This document shows, in pieces, positions 23,031 through 32,000 of a stretch of DNA of 32,000 nt. The DNA is taken from contig NZ_CP047931.1 of NCBI RefSeq assembly GCF_014280175.1, forward strand, positions 1,710,001 to 1,742,000, in the 5' to 3' direction. Under the pieces are notes generated by a model. That model was not told where the DNA came from and ran no database searches. It saw only the letters and a program-made list of their open reading frames with translations. Numbering within the stretch: the stretch's first letter is position 1; each line of letters begins with the position of its first letter. A program made the position numbers and the translations under genes. The DNA is from Synechococcus sp. A15-28. GTDB taxonomy: Bacteria; Cyanobacteriota; Cyanobacteriia; PCC-6307; Cyanobiaceae.

Positions 23031-24710
23031 ATGGCACTGATTCACGGCTTGCACACCCGCAATCTGCGAGGGGATTTACTGGGGGGACTGACCGCAGCCG
23101 TGGTGGCCTTGCCTCTGGCCCTCGCTTTCGGCAATGCGGCTCTAGGGCCAGGTGGAGCCATCTACGGCCTTTACGGTGCAATCGTCACGGGATTTGTGGC
23201 AGCCCTGCTCGGGGGGACGCCTGCCCAGGTGAGCGGGCCGACAGGTCCGATGAGCGTCACGGTGGCTGGGGTGGTCTCCAGCCTGGCCGCCGTTGGTGTT
23301 TCTTCAGACCTCTCGGCCGGAGAAATGTTGCCGTTGGTCATGGCTTCAGTCGCGATCGGCGGCATCTTCGAGGCACTGCTGGGAGTGCTTCGTCTGGGGC
23401 GCTTCATCACCCTGGTGCCCTATTCGGTGGTTTCGGGATTCATGTCCGGCATCGGCTTCATCATCCTGATCCTGCAAATCGGCCCCTTCATCGGTGTAAC
23501 CACAACAGGAGGAGTCGTCGGCTGTCTGACCACAATGGCTGAGTTGCCATTGCCAAACCTTGCGGCGTTGAGCATCGGCGTCATGACCCTTGCGGTGGTC
23601 TTCCTGACACCGGCACGGATCCGTCAATGGGTCCCATCCCCACTGTTGGCCCTGCTGATCGTGACTCCGTTGTCGCTGTTGCTGTTCAACGACGACCGGT
23701 TGCAGTCGTTGGGATTGGAACCGCTGAACCGCATCGGCGCCATTCCTGAAGGAGGGCTCCGATTCGTGATGCCGAACTTCAGTCAACATCTGCCGGAACT
23801 GATCAAGGCCGGTCTGGTGCTGGCATTGCTTGGAGCGATCGACTCGTTGTTGACTTCGCTGGTGGCCGACAACATCACCCAGACAAACCATGACTCCAAC
23901 CGAGAGCTGATCGGTCAGGGAATCGCGAACACCCTCTCAGGACTGCTTTCGGGCCTTCCCGGTGCTGGAGCCACGATGCGAACAGTCATCAACATCAAAT
24001 CAGGAGGAGCGACGCCTCTTTCCGGCATGACGCACTCCCTGGTGTTGTTGCTGGTGCTTCTTGGGGCAGGGGCATTCGCCGCCGAGATCCCGACAGCACT
24101 GCTGGCAGGAATTCTGATCAAGGTGGGGCTCGACATCATCGACTGGGGCTTTCTGCTCAGGGCCCATCGCCTTTCAGTCAAAACGGCTGCCCTGATGTAC
24201 GCCGTGATGTTGATGACCGTCTTCTGGGATCTGATCTGGGGGGTGTTGGTGGGAATGTTCGTCGCCAATCTGCTGACGGTGGATGCCATCACGCAGACCC
24301 AGCTGCAAGGGATGGACGAGGACAACCCTCACAAGGGGGACAAGCTCCAGATCGAAAACCTCAGTGAACAGGAGCGGAGGCTGATGGAGTGCTGTGGTGG
24401 GCAACTGATGTTGTTTCGGTTGCGAGGTCCACTGAGCTTTGGTGCCGCCAAGGGGATCAGCGCTCGCATGGGGCTTGTGAGCAACTATCAGGTACTCATC
24501 CTGGACATCACGGACGTGCCACGGATGGGCGTTACCGCAGCTCTGGCCATCGAACGGATGGTTCAGGAAGCCCAAATGCTCGGACGCGTGGCCTTTGTCG
24601 CGGGCGCAAACCAACGTCTGAAGAAACGCTTGGGGCGCTTTGGCGTCACCGGCGTAGTGACGGACAGGCTGGATGCACTTCAACGGGCCAGGGACCACCT
24701 GCAAGAGTAA
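23031..24710 (+). CDS. SulP-family anion transporter with C-terminal STAS domain (BicA-like)
   Basis: N-terminus RNLRGDLLGGLTAAVVALPLALAFG. SulP core SGFMSGIGFIILILQ and LTSLVADNITQTNHDSNRELIGQGIAN. STAS tail (LMLFRLRGPLSFGAAKG...ILDITDVPRMGVTAALAI). By recall it resembles the Synechococcus PCC 7002 BicA bicarbonate transporter. The substrate cannot be decided from sequence. Confidence 0.88.
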   Translation: MALIHGLHTRNLRGDLLGGLTAAVVALPLALAFGNAALGPGGAIYGLYGAIVTGFVAALLGGTPAQVSGPTGPMSVTVAGVVSSLAAVGVSSDLSAGEMLPLVMASVAIGGIFEALLGVLRLGRFITLVPYSVVSGFMSGIGFIILILQIGPFIGVTTTGGVVGCLTTMAELPLPNLAALSIGVMTLAVVFLTPARIRQWVPSPLLALLIVTPLSLLLFNDDRLQSLGLEPLNRIGAIPEGGLRFVMPNFSQHLPELIKAGLVLALLGAIDSLLTSLVADNITQTNHDSNRELIGQGIANTLSGLLSGLPGAGATMRTVINIKSGGATPLSGMTHSLVLLLVLLGAGAFAAEIPTALLAGILIKVGLDIIDWGFLLRAHRLSVKTAALMYAVMLMTVFWDLIWGVLVGMFVANLLTVDAITQTQLQGMDEDNPHKGDKLQIENLSEQERRLMECCGGQLMLFRLRGPLSFGAAKGISARMGLVSNYQVLILDITDVPRMGVTAALAIERMVQEAQMLGRVAFVAGANQRLKKRLGRFGVTGVVTDRLDALQRARDHLQE

Positions 24711-24892
24711 GCGATTCGCTACAGCCAAAGCAATTTTTGTCAAGCATTATCTGCAAGGGCTCACATCAAAAACCTGCTCGTCCTGAACACCCCAAACACT
24801 GCTAGAGAAGGAATGCTTGCGACGAACGCGTCGGCCAAGCCTTACGAAGTAAATCAATAATCCGCGGAACATTCTCTGCATCGATTCAACTC

Positions 24893-27066
24893 ATGACGAT
24901 CAGCGCACCTCCTGCACTCGCTTCACTACGAGGTAACCCGCTTGAGCCGCAAGGGACTCCCTTTCGTCGCTTCATAGGTTCTCCTCACCCCTTCGGGAGC
25001 ACAGTTGAATCTGAAGGAGTCAACTTCTCTCTTTACAGCAGCAGCGCAACAAGTGTTCAACTGCTGATCTTCACCAAACCAGACGATCTTGAGCCTTCAA
25101 AGGTCATCGATCTAGATAGAAACAATAATAGAAGCTTCAACATTTGGCATACCTTCATTGAGGGGGTGAAGCCGGGCATGGGTTATGCCTACCGCGTCGA
25201 CGGCCCTCGAGAGCCCTGGAACGGCAATCGTTTTGATCCCGACAAGGTTTTGGTGGATCCATATTCCAAGGGGAACAGTTTTGCGCGTTGGGATCGGGGA
25301 GCTGCCTGCACGCCCGGCGACAATCTGCACAAATCAATGCGCAGTGTTGTTATCGACACCAACAACTACGACTGGGAAGGGGACCAACCACTGAAAAAAC
25401 CAATGGCTGAGACCATTGTTTATGAGATGCACGTCGGTGGCTTCACAAAAAGCCCCACGAGTGGCGTTAAACATCCCGGAACTTATCTTGGCCTGATTGA
25501 GAAAATCCCCTATCTCAAGGAACTGGGAATAACGGCCGTTGAGCTGCTGCCTGTTTGCAGTTTCGACCACACCGATATCACCAAGGTCCACGAAGGACGC
25601 AAATTGGTGAATTACTGGGGCTACAGCACTATGGGATACTTTGCCCCCCATCAAGGATATTGCGTCAACCCAGACACAAGTCAACATATCAATGAATTCC
25701 GAGACATGGTAAAGGCCCTGCATCAAGCAGGAATCGAAGTCATCCTGGACGTTGTATACAACCACACAGACGAAGGCAATCATCAAGGTCCAACATTTAG
25801 CTTCAAAGGGATCGACAACTCTTCGTATTACTACCTCACTGGACCGGATGGATCTCGTGAGTTTTACTATGACTACACAGGTTGCGGAAACACCTTTAAC
25901 TGCAATCACCCTGTTGGAGAAAAACTGATCATCGACTCCCTTCGATTCTGGGTCGAAGAGATGCATGTTGACGGCTTCCGTTTTGATGAAGGGTCGGTGT
26001 TGAGTCGAGGGGAAGATGGAGTTCCACTGGAGCATCCTCCAGTCATCTGGGCGATTGAACTCGACGATTTGCTCGGTCAATCCAAAGTGATCGCTGAGGC
26101 TTGGGATGCTGCTGGCTTGTACCAAATCGGCTCCTTCCCTGGAGCTCGTTGGGCCGAGTGGAATGGAAAATACCGAGATTGCATCAGGAATTTCATCAAG
26201 GGGGAGCCAGGAATCATTGGAGAAGTTGCAGGACGAATCACAGGAAGTGCCGATCTGTATCAGGGTCGTCACCACGAACCAACGAACAGCGTCAACTTCG
26301 TTACTGCTCATGATGGCTTCACCTTGTATGACCTGACGGCGTACAAAGAAAAACACAACTGGGCAAACGGCGAGGGAAACAATGACGGAATTGACGACAA
26401 CGTCAGCTGGAATTGTGGCGCTGAGGGCGAAACAAACGATCAATGGATCAATGGATCAATGATCTTCGCAAACGCCAGGTCAAGAATTTCGCAACCATCC
26501 ACATGCTTTCAATCGGTGTTCCGATGATCGTTGCGGGAGATGAATTTATGCGCAGTCAGGGTGGCAATAACAACACTTATTGCCATGACAACGAAATCAA
26601 TTGGTTTGATTGGAACAAGATACAGCAGCCTGAACGACAAGAGATGATTCGATTCTGGTCCATGATCATGGACAAGAGAAGGAGATATATTGATCATTTC
26701 AAAGGTAAATATTTCGAAGGCAAGCAAAATCGGTTTGGCCTATATGACGTTTCTTGGCATGGCACCAAATTAAATAGTCCTGGCTGGGACGATCCCAATG
26801 CGCTGTGCCTTGGCATGACACTTGGAGATACAGCAGAAGACACAGACCAAACACTCAATATCCACGTCATGTTCAACATGTACTGGGACGGTGTCGAGTT
26901 CGAGATACCTCAGGCTTCTGACCTGAGGTGGTATCGAGCCATCGATACTGCCCTTCCAACACCAAATGACATCCAACCTCCTGAACAACAAGTTGCCATT
27001 GATGGCAACACATATCTCGTAACTGGAAGAAGTATTGTTGTTCTCGCTTCGCGAGAAACAAACTGA
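24893..27066 (+). pseudogene. glgX: Glycogen debranching enzyme / isoamylase (GH13, GlgX type) split by a +8-bp tandem repeat expansion
   Basis: ORFs 24893..26527 and 26443..27066 are the N- and C-terminal parts of one GlgX. GH13 regions are present: VILDVVYNHT, GFRFDEGSVL, AEAWD, FVTAHDGFTL, then LSIGVPMIVAGDEFMRSQGGNNNTYCHDN in the second ORF. Removing one 8-bp unit at 26438-26461 joins them (...ETNDQWINDLRKRQVKNF...) into 721 codons. Confidence 0.85.
26438..26461. repeat. Three perfect tandem copies of GATCAATG at the glgX frameshift site
   Basis: 26438-26445, 26446-26453 and 26454-26461 are all gatcaatg. Two copies would keep the frame; three shift it by +2. Confidence 0.95.
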
Positions 27067-27120
27067 ATTCCCTAGCAATTCTGCCACAATAACAATTCCA
27101 CAATTTCCACATTCCAAGTC

Positions 27121-29283
27121 ATGGCATCTAAAAATCAACTGAACTTCCCCTTCTCAGATCTCGTCGCTGGGTACATTCGCAGCGTCTCCTATCCGGAGAT
27201 CTTTGACTGCAAGGGCATGGTCGAACTGGAGACATCCGATGGACGGATGTACACCGTGAAAATCACAGATGCCTGTTACGCAGAGCTTGTACGCAACCTT
27301 GGTGAGCCCTTCCAGGTGGCACCTGATATGTCACAGATCCTTGTAGAGGATCGTTTTGTCCATGTGTATGGACTCTTCTACCCTGAAGCTGACAGCCTCA
27401 AGTTTGAGGCCAAGCACATGCTTCTCTTCGGCCGTGGAAAAGATGATCTGCGTTTCGAAGATCAGAACTGGTGGATTCATCAAATTCAGCAGTTGTTGAA
27501 TTTCTATCTTGAAGCTCAATTCAAGGTCGTCGAAGGCGAAGCTATTGACTTCAAAAAATTCCGCACTGATTTGAGTGCTGAGGGTAAGAAGCAGGATGGC
27601 GTTCAGAACCTCGATACTATCTCACGACTGGTGTATGGCTTTGCAACGGCCTACATGATCACTGGCGATGAACGTGCCCTCGAAGCTGCCACCAATGGCA
27701 CTGAGTACATGCAGCGCCACTTCCGCCATCAGAATAAGAGTGAAGGAATCTGTTACTGGTACAGCCAGATTGATATCCAAGACGATGGAAGTGTACGCAA
27801 ATACATGGGCTCCACTGCAGGTGGAGATGAAGGTGGTAATGCCATTCCTTGCTACGAGCAGATTTACGCTCTTGCTGGACCCACTCAAACCTGGCGTCTC
27901 ACCGGCGGTGAATCTATTAAGCATGATATCGACGATACAATCGCATTCTTGAATCGCTTCTACAAGGATCACGGTCCTTATGGAGGTTATTACTCTCATG
28001 TTGATCCAGTCACCTTCGACGCCAAAGCTGAATCCCTCGGGGTTAACAAGGCCAAGAAGAACTGGAACTCCGTTGGTGACCACGCACCCGCCTACTTGAT
28101 CAACCTTTATCTGGCCACAGGCGACGAGGGGTACGCGAAGTTCCTTGAGGATACGTTTGACACGATCTGCGAACACTTCCCTGACTACGGCTATAGCCCC
28201 TTCATGAACGAGAAGTTCTATGAGGACTGGACACACGATCTGAAGTGGGGCATTCACCAAGCCCGTTGTGTTGTGGGTCACAACCTGAAAGTGGCGTGGA
28301 ACCTCACCCGCATGCATAGCCTCAACCCCAAGGAGAGCTACAAAACCTTTGCTCACCAGATTGCCGATGCCATCCCCCCTGCCGGTTGCGACAACCAGCG
28401 CGGTGGTTGGTACGACATGATGGAGCGGACGCTGAAGGATGGTGAAGAGCACTATCGCCGCGTCTGGCACGACCGCAAGGCTTGGTGGCAGCAGGAACAG
28501 GGAATTCTTGCTTACTACATCATGGCTGGCGTTTACAACGACAAGCCTGAATATCTGCGTTACGCCAGAGAAGGCACGGCTTTCTACAACGGTTGGTTCC
28601 TGGACTATGAGTCCGGCGGCATCTATTTCAACGTTTTAGCCAACGGTCAGCCCTACTCTCTTGGATCCGAGCGTGGTAAAGGTAGCCACTCCATGGCGGG
28701 CTATCACTCATTTGAACTCTGTTTCCTTGCAGCGATTTACTCGAACCTGCTTGTCACCAAGCAGCCAATGGACTTCTACTTCCGTCCAGATCCTCAGGGA
28801 TGGCCCGACAACAAATTGCGAGTCGCACCTGACCTGCTTCCTGCTGGCAGTGTTGAACTGAGTGAAGTCTGGATTGACGACAAAACCTTCACCGATTTCG
28901 ATCGAAAGGAGATGATCGTCAACCTGCCCAATTCCGATAAACCACTCCGCGTTCGCGTTCGTATTGAACCAGCAGGAATGGGCTTCAGTGCTGATCTTAT
29001 GAGCTTTGAGAACGGAATTGGCAAGTTTGCACTTGATGGTGACCTCACGCGTTGTAAGCTCCCAACCCTGAAAAAAGAGCTGGAGAGACTCTCCGGGGTC
29101 AAGGGAATTGTCTTGGATATGACAAATCTCAAGACAGTTGACGACACAGGTTGGAACTACCTCCTGTTCACAAAACAACAGCGAGGAGCTGAATTTAGCG
29201 TTCAACTTTCCGGACTAAATCAAGTCATCAGTCAGTCTCTAAAAGACGCTGAACTCGATGAGGAGTTCGCTGTTATCGGCTAA
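27121..29283 (+). CDS. Multidomain protein: unknown N-terminal domain, AGE/cellobiose-2-epimerase-superfamily (alpha/alpha)6 core, beta-rich linker, C-terminal STAS domain
   Basis: 720 aa, ATG start. AGE-family-like strings: VVGHNLKVAWNL (His387, cf. GHxxExxW), RKAWWQQEQGILAY (cf. WWxQxEA), AGYHSFELCFLA (His529, cf. YHNGRA). The last 90 aa or so (about 29000-29280) look like STAS/anti-sigma antagonist: FALDGDLTRCKLPTLKKELERLSGVKGIVLDMTNLKTVDDTGWNYLLF. Followed by a strong terminator. Confidence 0.8.
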   Translation: MASKNQLNFPFSDLVAGYIRSVSYPEIFDCKGMVELETSDGRMYTVKITDACYAELVRNLGEPFQVAPDMSQILVEDRFVHVYGLFYPEADSLKFEAKHMLLFGRGKDDLRFEDQNWWIHQIQQLLNFYLEAQFKVVEGEAIDFKKFRTDLSAEGKKQDGVQNLDTISRLVYGFATAYMITGDERALEAATNGTEYMQRHFRHQNKSEGICYWYSQIDIQDDGSVRKYMGSTAGGDEGGNAIPCYEQIYALAGPTQTWRLTGGESIKHDIDDTIAFLNRFYKDHGPYGGYYSHVDPVTFDAKAESLGVNKAKKNWNSVGDHAPAYLINLYLATGDEGYAKFLEDTFDTICEHFPDYGYSPFMNEKFYEDWTHDLKWGIHQARCVVGHNLKVAWNLTRMHSLNPKESYKTFAHQIADAIPPAGCDNQRGGWYDMMERTLKDGEEHYRRVWHDRKAWWQQEQGILAYYIMAGVYNDKPEYLRYAREGTAFYNGWFLDYESGGIYFNVLANGQPYSLGSERGKGSHSMAGYHSFELCFLAAIYSNLLVTKQPMDFYFRPDPQGWPDNKLRVAPDLLPAGSVELSEVWIDDKTFTDFDRKEMIVNLPNSDKPLRVRVRIEPAGMGFSADLMSFENGIGKFALDGDLTRCKLPTLKKELERLSGVKGIVLDMTNLKTVDDTGWNYLLFTKQQRGAEFSVQLSGLNQVISQSLKDAELDEEFAVIG

Positions 29284-29320
29284 TTAAGCTGATTTCTAGC
29301 AATCATCCAAAACCCATCTG

Positions 29321-29346
29321 AAGGCGTGCGAAAGCACGCCTTTTTT
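29321..29346 (+). terminator. Rho-independent terminator after the AGE-STAS gene
   Basis: aaggcgtgc-gaaa-gcacgcctt stem-loop (9 bp, GNRA-type loop) running into tttttt. It lies 38 nt after the stop. Confidence 0.9.
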
Positions 29347-29359
29347 CTGGACTATTCCA

Positions 29360-30748
29360 ATGAGTAACTTCATAGCTATCAGCAAGCTGGGCGTTCAAGC
29401 GGCACAAAGTGGAGATTTGGCAACTGCTGAAAAGTATTTCCGCCAAGCGGCAGATATGAAGGGAGAGCCACCAGAAGCAATCTTTAATTTATGCAGACTG
29501 CTGAATATGCAAGGCAGACATAAGGATGTAGTCCAATCTTTTACCAAAAGGATAAAATCGCAAGACTACGTAACTATACATCCGCAACTTCTCTTAATCG
29601 CGAGCCAGTCTGCGCAAAGCTGCAGAAATCATTCACTGGCAATTGAGATCTTATCGTCTCTCCATTATAAGTATCCAGAAAATATTGAGACATCAGTTAT
29701 GCTAAGTACACTAGAGATCGAAGCAGGCAGGCTTAGCGCGGCAATGAATATTATCAACATTACTATTAAACAAAGTGGTCGCAGTCCGTCACTTCTAACA
29801 AACCTAGCCATTTGCGAATCAGAGATGGGGAACCTTCAAACTGCGGACAACATTCACAAGGAAATTATAAGCAAGAATCCCGAAAAATTCCTTGCTTACT
29901 TTAATTATGGAAAATATCTGGCAACAGTAGGCGAAACCTCATTAGCAAAGCAATCGTTCAAAAAATGCCTAGAAATCGTACCCAATGCGCCAGAGGCATT
30001 GGAAGCAATCAATCAAATCGAACCGCAAGACACATCGATCGCTAAATTCTATGCAAAAATTGAATTAGGCGACTATCATAGAGCAGCAGTAATTCTCAAG
30101 GAGCATTCGAACACTATCGGCACCAGCGATTACTTATCATGTATAAGTTACCTTAACGAAAAATACCGTTCTTGGTTTGGCGAGTCTAGACAATTCTCGC
30201 CCAAACAATTAGTTCATAAACACAATTTAAATGAGGATACAAGTATTGACCTTAATTCATTGTATACCTACGTCAAGAATAGCGAATCGTTAATCAAGGA
30301 CAGGCCTGGGAAACCGACAATAAACGGCTATCAAACCTACGAAGTCCTTAAAGGTTCGACAAATCAAACAGTAAAAATTCTATGTGAAAAGATTATATCG
30401 TTAGCAACCGATTACTACGACACCTTAGAACTCCCATACAAAATGGGTAACGGCAATAACAGATATGAGATTAGCGGATGGGGAGTTGCATTAAATGGGG
30501 GCGGGCATCAAAAGCTTCATACACATCCAGAAGCCAAAATAAGTGGAGTACTTTATCTGAAGACGTCGAAAGAAACCGAATCAATGGAAACCGACAAAGG
30601 AAATATACTTTTCCCTACAGTGGAATCTCTTTCAATAGCTCCGTACACAGGGCTTATGATTATATTTCCGAGCTATTTACCTCACTCAACAGTACCAACA
30701 ACTGAAGAGAATGAAAGAGTATGTATTGCATTTAATGTAAACTTTTAG
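29360..30748 (+). CDS. TPR-repeat protein fused to a 2OG-Fe(II)-oxygenase-like domain (TIGR02466 / 2OG-FeII_Oxy_5 type)
   Basis: The N-terminal 220 aa or so form TPR-like helical repeats (AEKYFRQAADMKGEPPEAIFNLCRLL..., AKQSFKKCLEIVPNAPEAL). C-terminus: GWGVALNGGGHQKLHTHPEAKISGVLYL...GLMIIFPSYLPHSTVP...RVCIAFNVNF. This matches the H-x-H ... FPS-x-x-x-H ... R-x-S/C-x-x-FN pattern of that family by recall. Confidence 0.75.
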   Translation: MSNFIAISKLGVQAAQSGDLATAEKYFRQAADMKGEPPEAIFNLCRLLNMQGRHKDVVQSFTKRIKSQDYVTIHPQLLLIASQSAQSCRNHSLAIEILSSLHYKYPENIETSVMLSTLEIEAGRLSAAMNIINITIKQSGRSPSLLTNLAICESEMGNLQTADNIHKEIISKNPEKFLAYFNYGKYLATVGETSLAKQSFKKCLEIVPNAPEALEAINQIEPQDTSIAKFYAKIELGDYHRAAVILKEHSNTIGTSDYLSCISYLNEKYRSWFGESRQFSPKQLVHKHNLNEDTSIDLNSLYTYVKNSESLIKDRPGKPTINGYQTYEVLKGSTNQTVKILCEKIISLATDYYDTLELPYKMGNGNNRYEISGWGVALNGGGHQKLHTHPEAKISGVLYLKTSKETESMETDKGNILFPTVESLSIAPYTGLMIIFPSYLPHSTVPTTEENERVCIAFNVNF

Positions 30749-30753
30749 CTCAA

Positions 30754-31917
30754 TCAATAGGGCAAGACTGAGTAGCCACCAATAATTAGATCTACATAGA
30801 ATCTATAGCAACCAGAATGAGTTGGCGTAAACTCGAGGGCTGGCGGATTCCCGTGAGACGTTAATTGGCCATAGTGTTTAAGTGAGCCTAAACTAGGATC
30901 TGCTGAATAAGGGTTAGAGCCACTAAAATTATATCCTTTGCAGTCTAGTTCATAGTCTGCATAAACAAGAGCCCATGGCGACGAATTAGCAACATATTTA
31001 TAGTTATAGGTTGTACCAGCCTCGAGTTGCAATACCTTTTCAAATCTTCCTGGACCCAGGGGATTCATGATGTTTAATTTTGATGTGGGGTCCCACGCAG
31101 CCATTGGTTGATCAAAAGAACCAACAAGTGACAATGCATCAATCGTATCAATAGGTAATAGAGTTGCATCACCTTCAACCACGTCAACAGTCAATCTGTC
31201 AGTAGAAGGATCAAACATGAATTCCAACATTGATTCATGATCAAGCTTGAAGCAAATATTGAGTTCGTGTGGCTTACCGTGCCAGGTTGTGCATTTAATT
31301 GATTTTTGAGACTTTACGTTTTCTAGATCAAGCCAACATCCAAGCCCCATTGTGTCCAGAAAAAGCTCTGAGCTAATTCCGATATTGACTACATGAAAAC
31401 CTGCTTTGACTTTAGTCACCATTCCAACATAGGGCGTGCCAGCTACTGGATGCATCTCACGAGCAGGATCAGTAGGATCGAATTGATTTTGATCAAAAAT
31501 ACTTCCCAATAACTGATAACTCTTTCTGTCGTTTAAAAGATCAGGACTTTTGCCGTCGTTTCTTTTATTATCCGCATAGTCAACAGTTATTGATGGAGAA
31601 GGCGACATTGGGTTATGCAGGCTAAAGCGATATATAGAATCCTCATAAACACGTACAGTACAACCTGAATGAAAAGATGTGCCGTGGCTACTGCCAAAAC
31701 CAGTTCCTTGAACAAGAGAACCTTGACCATCATTCAAGGATGAAAAGCCAAAATCTTCTTCATAATCAGCCGAAATCAGGAATTGATAAACGCCATCTGC
31801 CCTAAAATCTATGCCACCGTTTTTAAGCAGTGGAACATCAATCGTCCAAAGATCATCTGACTGGCGCTCAAAATCTCTACCTTTGAGGCGAGGATCAAAC
31901 TTTTCAAACATATTCAA
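30754..31917 (-). CDS. Hypothetical protein with repeated beta-sandwich (CBM/E-set-like) modules; possibly 5'-truncated by the window edge
   Basis: The track start at 31917 is TTG; the first ATG is at 31911. I translated the same frame upstream (IPSAGAATVEPITSFSSYQLNGFVWDSLNM...) and found no stop up to position 31998. Repeated pattern: LVGSF..W.P...M.....F...L.L.AG..Y.YKYV, as in LSLVGSFDQPMAAWDPTSKLNIMNPLGPGRFEKVLQLEAGTTYNYKYVANSSPW. Confidence 0.6.
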   Translation of the reverse strand: MNMFEKFDPRLKGRDFERQSDDLWTIDVPLLKNGGIDFRADGVYQFLISADYEEDFGFSSLNDGQGSLVQGTGFGSSHGTSFHSGCTVRVYEDSIYRFSLHNPMSPSPSITVDYADNKRNDGKSPDLLNDRKSYQLLGSIFDQNQFDPTDPAREMHPVAGTPYVGMVTKVKAGFHVVNIGISSELFLDTMGLGCWLDLENVKSQKSIKCTTWHGKPHELNICFKLDHESMLEFMFDPSTDRLTVDVVEGDATLLPIDTIDALSLVGSFDQPMAAWDPTSKLNIMNPLGPGRFEKVLQLEAGTTYNYKYVANSSPWALVYADYELDCKGYNFSGSNPYSADPSLGSLKHYGQLTSHGNPPALEFTPTHSGCYRFYVDLIIGGYSVLPY

Positions 31918-32000
31918 AGAGTCCCATACAAAGCCGTTAAGTTGGTAACTTGAGAACGAAGTGATCGGCTCAACTGTTGCAGCCCCGGCACTAGGTATCA

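Follow-up and report, generated by a model that had tools for sequence, protein, structure and literature searches.

The window analysed here is a stretch of 32,000 nucleotides of Synechococcus sp. A15-28 (G000), genome positions 1,710,001-1,742,000, and it ends inside a block of low guanine-plus-cytosine (GC) content that follows the gene of a BicA-type SulP transporter. A preliminary description of the window had taken this block for a horizontally acquired or fast-evolving, glycan-related island of four genes whose right boundary lies outside the window. Read together with the rightward extension L001 (genome 1,734,001-1,754,000; L001 position 1 is window 24,001), the block is an island of 12 kb and nine genes between BicA and miaE, at a hotspot that lies between the convergent 3' ends of these two genes. 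Its right end does fall beyond the window, 4.7-5.4 kb past the edge, at miaE. The four genes are as described, except that glgX is split by a frameshift, and five further genes follow past the window. The features of the region, in window coordinates unless L001 is named, are as follows:

23031-24710, plus strand: BicA-type SulP bicarbonate transporter gene with a C-terminal STAS domain (Pfam Sulfate_transp, 1.8e-80, plus STAS); core gene and left anchor
24711-24892: left junction, a 182-bp spacer from the BicA stop to the glgX2 start, in which the GC switch starts
24893-27066, plus strand: glgX2, a divergent isoamylase-type glycogen debranching gene, frameshifted (open reading frames, ORFs, 24893-26527 and 26443-27066)
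27121-29283, plus strand: gene of an N-acylglucosamine 2-epimerase (AGE)-type protein with a fused C-terminal STAS domain (AGE-STAS, 720 amino acids), the marker gene of the cassette
29205-29360: mosaic breakpoint and second GC step (from ~0.50 to ~0.40)
29360-30748, plus strand: gene of a protein with tetratricopeptide repeats (TPR) and a 2-oxoglutarate (2OG)-Fe(II) oxygenase domain of PF13759/TIGR02466 type, 462 amino acids (TPR-2OG)
30754-32000, minus strand: C-terminal 415 codons, as contained in the window, of a tandem X25-type predicted alpha-glucan-binding protein
L001 6754-8400: the full X25-repeat gene, 548 amino acids from a conserved ATG (the longest ORF reaches L001 8529)
L001 8626-9558, plus strand: ThiJ-like gene (PF17124, 3.7e-24)
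L001 9630-11351, plus strand: gene of a thiamine diphosphate (ThDP) enzyme (TPP_enzyme N, M and C)
L001 11383-11808 and 11852-12247, plus strand: two SnoaL-like genes (PF12680)
L001 12254-12664, plus strand: VOC/glyoxalase-like gene (PF00903)
L001 12698-12724: strong terminator-like hairpin closing the ThiJ-to-VOC gene set
L001 12757-13416, minus strand: miaE (PF06175, 4e-56), the right anchor
L001 13422-13853, minus strand: aroQ (PF01220)
L001 13939-14020: tRNA-Tyr(GTA)
L001 14031-14102: tRNA-Thr(GGT)

The genome of G000 is a single contig of 2,341,586 bp with a GC content of 0.601 (completeness 100%, contamination 0.05%), and GC, third-position GC (GC3) and tetranucleotide profiles of the block all deviate from the upstream sequence or from the genome as a whole. 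In sliding 1-kb windows the GC content is 0.57-0.67 at 4-24.5 kb of the window, 0.53 at 24.5-25.5 kb, 0.46-0.49 at 25-28 kb, 0.52-0.53 at 27.5-29 kb and 0.39-0.43 at 29-32 kb, and at 500-bp resolution the change begins at the BicA stop (window 24710). The sharp fall exactly at the SulP stop and the further fall toward the right edge, both claimed earlier, are thus confirmed; the second step falls together with a recombination breakpoint near window 29,205 (discussed below). From about L001 13,500 the GC content is back to at least 0.60 (0.60-0.70). Over the whole genome, 2-kb windows have a mean GC of 0.601 with a standard deviation (SD) of 0.064, a 10th percentile of 0.508 and a 2.5th percentile of 0.409, whereas the mean of the low-GC run is 0.457 and its lowest value 0.403; the run ranks among roughly the lowest 2-10% of the genome, and its minimum is more than 2 SD under the genome mean. 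GC3 is 0.35-0.58 in the island genes, compared with 0.74 in BicA and 0.64 in aroQ, and the tetranucleotide distances of 5-kb windows in the island (0.036-0.045) correspond to the 94th-97th genome percentile, compared with the 2nd-41st percentile in the 20 kb upstream. The island is one of about 40 low-GC stretches in the G000 genome, so that its deviation is significant yet typical for this organism. The largest and most AT-rich islands of G000 lie at genome positions 82-99 kb, 143-164 kb and 2,286-2,302 kb, with a mean GC of 0.37-0.41.

BicA, miaE and AGE-STAS were located in 60 relatives. BicA, whose NCBIfam match (6.6e-166) is under the curated cut-off, is present and syntenic with MutS2-p333-DnaJ in 24 of the 24 relatives examined for this arrangement. 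The site is empty in 18 congeneric genomes, where BicA and miaE stand next to each other in convergent orientation, 3-306 bp apart. The state of the site is as follows:

Empty site: G001, G003, G004, G005, G006, G007, G008, G012, G018, G019, G024, G026, G027, G029, G032, G033, G034, G035
Filled site, 7.7-31 kb with the cassette: G000, G021, G014, G022, G028, G030, G009, G015
BicA adjoins the cassette on the available sequence: G013, G016, G020, G031, G023, G137

The closest relative of G000 by flank genes, G007, in which BicA is 89-90% identical, has an empty site with the 306-bp gap. Filled sites open with glgX2, AGE-STAS and TPR-2OG. At least 13 congeneric genomes, from several deep lineages, have the BicA-glgX2-AGE junction together with an equally low GC, and the GC content of the cassette is 0.39-0.53 in every marine holder. 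Synteny with other marine Synechococcus, which had been proposed as a check on acquisition, therefore gives a divided answer: the site is empty in 18 relatives, but at least 13 genomes share the same genes at the same locus with the same composition, and the acquisition is not specific to G000.

G003 and G018, both with an empty BicA-miaE site, have the nine genes in the same order at a second site. In G003 this site holds an 18.3-kb low-GC insert that directly abuts tRNA-Ser(CGA), and G018 has the same distal (right) flank. The orthologous tRNA-Ser of G000 is directly followed by that flank gene, showing that the second site is empty there. Island copies other than glgX2 have no paralogs in G000. 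The G003 island (joined L024+L033, 19,700-25,060) also encodes extra SnoaL-like proteins, an MBL-fold protein and a porin-like protein of 528 amino acids with, by eye, an SLH-like N terminus and a beta-barrel-like C terminus. The metagenome-assembled genome (MAG) G023 (contigs C31 and C67) contains two copies of BicA, one beside the cassette and one beside miaE; it probably combines several strains, in which case the site would be polymorphic within one population.

A flank tree was calculated from MutS2, p333, DnaJ and BicA (2038 columns). Holders of the cassette at the BicA-miaE site fall in several deep lineages of this tree, and the empty-site genome G007 is nested among them, with the topology (G031,(G000,(G007,G021))). 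This indicates that G007 lost the cassette, rather than that G000 gained it. The AGE-STAS tree conflicts with the flank tree. In the cassette tree, G013/G016 and G009/G020, whose flanks are near-identical, belong to two different well-supported clades; G014 and G015 are sisters by flank but not by cassette; the second-site copies beside tRNA-Ser are sister to the G015 copy at the BicA-miaE site; and G000 groups with G022 and G031, not with G021. Approximately unbiased (AU) tests reject the flank-derived clades G013+G016+G009+G020 (p 9e-49), G014+G015 (p 3e-66) and G000+G021 (p 3e-38). The conflict between cassette and flank, together with the presence of the same cassette at another locus in G003 and G018, shows lateral exchange.

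The island of G000 itself is a mosaic, with a left part of G137/G022 type and a right part of G015/G003 type. The DNA alignment between G000 and G137 (blastn; AGE 95% identical) ends at about window 29,205 (genome 1,739,205), at the 3' end of AGE-STAS, and to the right of this point the gene content is of the G015/G003/G018 type, with 62-96% protein identity. On the far side, miaE of G000 has a GC content of 0.51 and groups with G014/G009, not with G007/G021 (support 96/97 in a small data set), which suggests that the exchange extended into miaE; no information came from the aroQ tree. BicA of G014 and G015 (L059 and L060) is 67-70% identical to that of G000, compared with 75-90% in others, and MutS2, p333 and DnaJ of these two genomes are not divergent; recombination may extend into the left anchor in the G014/G015 lineage.

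The block is thus very likely a flexible genomic island that is laterally exchanged at a conserved hotspot. Judged from the trees and the occupancy of the two sites, the genus has long had the cassette, which has been lost repeatedly and is not a recent foreign import into G000. Its alleles have been swapped between lineages with nearly identical flanks, and in other strains the cassette has in addition been placed at a second hotspot beside tRNA-Ser(CGA). The idea of an acquired or fast-evolving island survives to the extent that the block is flexible and laterally exchanged, as seen from the tree conflict, the second locus and the 18 empty sites; a recent or G000-specific event does not. The holders in the deep lineages G028/G030, G014/G015, G000/G021/G031 and G009/G013/G016/G020, the nesting of empty-site G007 among them and a low GC that is alike in every holder would also be compatible with an ancestral block of purely vertical descent, AT-rich by fast evolution under relaxed selection and deleted many times with no transfer. 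Such a history is unlikely, because the AGE tree contradicts the flank tree even where the flanks are near-identical, because the same nine-gene order stands beside tRNA-Ser in two genomes whose BicA-miaE site is empty, and because the island of G000 combines left and right parts of different types. Recent acquisition by G000 from a distant low-GC donor outside Synechococcus is at odds with congeneric copies that are 77-96% identical and have the same junction and the same GC, and homologs outside the family are only 50-57% identical; the strong compositional deviation, the absence of the block from the closest relative by flank genes and the homologous clusters in other phyla would all fit such a donor, which is nevertheless extremely improbable and effectively refuted. 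There is practically no chance of an assembly or contamination artefact, for which nothing more than the abrupt change of composition speaks, as the contig is single (2.34 Mb), complete and nearly free of contamination by the values given above and the BicA-glgX2 junction recurs in more than 12 independent genomes.

An integrase-driven mobile element targeting tRNA genes, either tycheposon-like or the remnant of a prophage or of an integrative and conjugative element, would find some support in the tRNA-Tyr/tRNA-Thr pair, which lies ~0.5 kb beyond miaE-aroQ on the right side, and in the G003 island that directly abuts tRNA-Ser. It is very unlikely all the same. Two core genes stand between the G000 island and its tRNAs, and no integrase, transposase or phage gene was present among the ORFs of the 12-kb island, all of which were assigned to other families. 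A search for PF00589 in G000, G003, G015, G028 and G009 gave no match near any island, the matches in G000, G003 and G028 lying hundreds of kilobases away. Comparison of the G000 island ends for flanking direct or inverted repeats returned only short chance matches, the 306-bp empty-site spacer of G007 has no similarity to the G000 junctions outside the coding parts, and no partial tRNA-Ser copy (att) was found at the distal end of the G003 island. This agrees with the preliminary description as far as the left boundary is concerned, where no tRNA, integrase, transposase or direct repeat had been seen; on the right, where it had been proposed to look for a tRNA, integrase or repeat boundary, the extension reached the tRNA pair past miaE-aroQ, but no integrase or repeat boundary. 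Since integrase, transposase and att repeat are all missing, the island would most likely have been exchanged by homologous recombination in the conserved flanks, following uptake of DNA or transduction.

The cargo of the island starts with glgX2, which encodes CBM48, alpha-amylase and isoamylase C-terminal domains. A separate core glgX is contiguous at genome 518.8-520.8 kb and is 45% identical to glgX2, so that the island gene is an extra paralog. On the two glgX2 ORFs TIGR02100 matches in two pieces, at positions 2-495 (1.5e-168) and 491-686 (1.5e-36), with fragment scores of 561.9 and 125.7 bits against a cut-off of 640.9, and the island gene thus gives no full-length match above the cut-off in one open frame. 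The frame is disrupted by a slippage of +8 bp, where GATCAATG occurs three times at 26438-26461 (plus strand); with two GATCAATG units the frame would again read ...ETNDQWINDLRKRQ.... In 10 of 10 marine relatives and in G137 there are two imperfect units, translated as DQW(I/V)ND, and the gene is one open frame. A truncated GlgX2 product is on record from G000 alone, and its cluster mates, among the matches listed, are mostly 715-722 amino acids long. The 8-bp triplication is evidently private to the G000 assembly and, as it breaks glgX2, the debranching step by GlgX2 is probably non-functional in G000.

The second gene encodes AGE-STAS, a member of the AGE superfamily with an unassigned N-terminal domain and the STAS domain at the C terminus. 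It has more than 4500 homologs in many phyla, many of them with precomputed PF07221 and STAS assignments and the name "AGE family epimerase/isomerase." Direct Pfam matches of the island protein are weak, and direct sequence matching to solved structures gave nothing informative. Within the family, an AGE homolog is present in 29 of the 298 genomes that are at least 90% complete, about 15 of these 29 being of the fused type, and several large genera have none. The STAS part (window 28951-29283) has an Asp aligned with the phospho-Ser of stand-alone STAS proteins. This position is Asp or Glu in fused homologs (Cylindrospermopsis, planctomycete), whereas the stand-alone STAS proteins of the non-marine cyanobacteria G044 and G053 keep the SSAGL/ASAGL motif. 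The acidic residue suggests that the fused STAS is kinase-independent or phosphomimetic, and the domain may act as a constitutive or kinase-independent interaction domain.

AGE-type and GlgX2-type genes are also neighbors outside the marine cassette. In Synechocystis, the slr1852-slr1862 operon encodes the AGE-type Slr1855, the STAS proteins Slr1856 and Slr1859 and the isoamylase Slr1857 (GlgX2), as well as the PP2C phosphatase IcfG and the kinase/anti-SigC Slr1861, and it has been linked to inorganic-carbon/glucose regulation (PMC8670252, PMC12329169); the icfG operon goes back to Beuf 1994 and to Shi, Bischoff & Kennelly 1999, as cited in PMC12329169 and PMC8670252. An AGE gene next to a GlgX2-type gene is found in the G000 island and likewise, at 48-55% identity, in G044, G053 and G011. 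The loci of G044 and G053 run SnoaL/DJ-1/VOC-AGE-STAS-GlgX-STAS-kinase-PP2C, with homologs that are 48-57% identical to the island proteins. Like the icfG cluster, the island has an AGE-type gene beside a GlgX2-type isoamylase, a STAS domain and small SnoaL/VOC/DJ-1-type enzymes. It differs in that the marine order is glgX-AGE, in that STAS is fused to the C terminus of AGE (the equivalent of slr1855 and slr1856 fused), in the Asp in place of a phosphorylatable Ser and in the absence of a stand-alone phosphorylatable STAS from the island. Neither an RsbW/SpoIIAB-like kinase nor a PP2C/SpoIIE phosphatase is present among the genes of the 12-kb island, whereas both are in cis in G044 and G053; the kinase and the phosphatase of G000 are single copies elsewhere, at genome 979 kb and 15 kb. 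Furthermore, the marine form adds the ThiJ-like gene, the ThDP enzyme, the TPR-2OG oxygenase and the X25-repeat protein, and it sits on a swappable island. By gene order and domain content, the island cargo is apparently a reduced relative of the icfG-type carbon-regulation/glycogen cluster. In G011 (L027, L028) the BicA-miaE gap is ~5 kb without the cassette, and an unfused AGE homolog (51%) paired with a glgX (48%) lies ~22 kb away at a GC content of 0.42-0.44; this pair may represent another and older branch of the module in the genus.

A closer match in gene families comes from other lineages. On a Cylindrospermopsis contig and in MAGs of Rhodospirillaceae and Planctomycetota, AGE-STAS directly follows GlgX and lies near ThiJ-like, ThDP-enzyme, SnoaL and DJ-1 genes. 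This clustering in three phyla argues that the two modules of the island, left and right, belong together as a set conserved across phyla. The clusters, of the form ThiJ-ThDP-(EthD)-SnoaL(-Ank)-DJ-1-GlgX-AGE-STAS, consist of the same families, with a fused AGE-STAS of ~711-717 amino acids directly downstream of GlgX. In contrast, the marine version lacks EthD, the Ank-fused SnoaL, a second DJ-1 and TMEM175, adds TPR-2OG and X25 and is arranged as two divergent transcription units.

The X25-repeat protein (548-591 amino acids) belongs to a narrow marine family of ~208 unnamed proteins. It matches Pfam X25 (PF22058) at 8e-5, with 23.1 bits against a cut-off of 27, and direct sequence matching to solved structures returned nothing informative. 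Its AlphaFold2 model is all-beta (predicted local distance difference test, pLDDT, 89.8; predicted template modeling score, pTM, 0.89), and the only confident structural matches of this model in Foldseek are starch-binding modules, namely, X25-2 of Sca5 (7rpy, E 3.4e-9) and SusF (4fe9, E 1.2e-7), both with a probability of 1.00, and the starch-binding domain of AmyP, with a probability of 0.99. From the model, the protein is thus predicted to bind alpha-glucan. It resembles Ruminococcus bromii Sca5 X25-2 and Bacteroides thetaiotaomicron SusF in its predicted tandem X25-type beta-sandwich modules, but sequence identity is 11-15%. Neither a signal peptide nor a cohesin/dockerin or lipoprotein context was apparent by eye, and the island protein is therefore probably cytoplasmic, not cell-surface.

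The TPR-2OG gene has the lowest GC content of the island (0.40), and its slot is hypervariable, with 31-38% identity between holders compared with 77-95% for the neighboring genes. Metagenomic alleles are 99, 89, 86, 65 and down to 30% identical. Cyanophage matches reach 27-29% identity and are confined to the oxygenase domain, on which grounds a phage origin of TPR-2OG was rejected.

In the right-hand module, the ThDP enzyme is nearest to benzoylformate decarboxylase (5.7e-57) and is under all NCBIfam cut-offs, that of Xsc included. Pathways of the sulfoquinovose and anhydrofructose type, considered as analogies for the combination of AGE and ThDP enzymes, were dropped because no match supported them and because of this nearest relationship. 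Together, the ThiJ-like, ThDP, two SnoaL and VOC genes point to carbonyl/2-oxo chemistry. Of the earlier label "glycan-related," what stands is glgX2, the X25 protein and, more loosely, AGE, that is, three of the nine genes; no evidence for it was found in TPR-2OG or in the five-gene carbonyl module.

Taken as a whole, the cassette consists of a left module of glgX2 and AGE-STAS, roughly slr1855 and slr1856 fused plus slr1857, and a right module of ThiJ-like, ThDP, two SnoaL and VOC genes, with TPR-2OG and the tandem X25 gene as marine add-ons between them. Its left side and the X25 protein would provide accessory cytoplasmic glycogen handling, in which an isoamylase acts with an X25 protein that tethers glycogen and an AGE enzyme resembling sugar isomerases, and this part would be linked with enzymes acting on reactive carbonyl or 2-oxo products. 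A glycogen-handling module is a tentative proposal from domains and the predicted fold. It is conceivable, at somewhat less than an even chance, that the cargo represents a marine variant, with STAS fused and the kinase lost, of a module spread over several phyla that couples glycogen debranching by GlgX2 (here with a dedicated X25 protein that tethers glycogen) to an AGE-type sugar isomerase and to carbonyl/2-oxo enzymes. It would then be a so far undescribed route of storage-glucan turnover or by-product detoxification, which marine Synechococcus lineages would gain, lose and swap as one unit by niche.

Several points weigh against reading the block as an exchanged island with such a cargo. 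The mechanism of transfer is inferred. The groupings submitted to the AU tests were chosen after both trees had been seen, the species tree is a four-gene flank proxy from beside the island that may itself have recombined, and several holders are incomplete MAGs, in which strain mixtures are possible, G023 having both an empty and a filled site. The functional proposal is based on domain and fold assignments and on gene clustering. Within it, direct Pfam/NCBIfam scores leave the AGE assignment of the island protein below threshold, nothing evident connects TPR-2OG with glycans, the icfG layout was compared via G044 and G053 as proxies for the Synechocystis proteins, and the glgX2 frameshift is taken from the assembly sequence.

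Genomic islands of marine Synechococcus are repositories of laterally transferred genes (PMC2441476, PMC7522525). Dufresne et al. 2008 (PMC2441476) recognized islands by a tetranucleotide or compositional profile that departs from the genome mean by more than 1 SD across six or more genes and by accessory content that differs between strains inside core-gene borders, with proximity to tRNA or mobility genes as an aid for island borders that is not obligatory. The present block deviates over nine genes, has strain-variable content between core blocks and lies near tRNAs. It resembles the islands described for marine Synechococcus and Prochlorococcus (Dore et al. 2020, PMC7522525; Coleman et al. 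2006, as cited there) as a compositionally deviant and variable accessory block with core-gene borders, nearby tRNAs and carbohydrate-related cargo. It differs from them in that the cargo is a conserved co-linear cassette known also from outside the group, in that no mobility gene is present and in that two alternative hotspots are used. No published description of this island or of the cassette was found in the literature searched.

Low-GC islands in marine Synechococcus are textbook knowledge, and the finding of low GC as first stated is ordinary. What is added is a clean comparison of empty and filled sites at a defined hotspot, the occurrence of the same nine genes at two hotspots and statistical support for the exchange of cassette alleles between lineages without a recombinase. 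If the module affects glycogen handling, its patchy carriage may be one source of the differences in carbon storage between Synechococcus ecotypes that occur together.

Between the X25 and ThiJ-like genes, a 96-bp spacer (L001 8530-8625) contains a divergent promoter-like pair (11/12 and 10/12 matches); across the region such sites are no more numerous than expected from shuffled sequence. Two GH13 genes lie just past the tRNA pair in a stretch of normal high GC (L001 14104-19998; genome 1,748,104-1,753,998), the first of the alpha-amylase family and the second encoding a C-terminal maltogenic-amylase domain, together with ORFs resembling glpK and glpD, so that a conserved carbohydrate/glycerol neighborhood adjoins the island.

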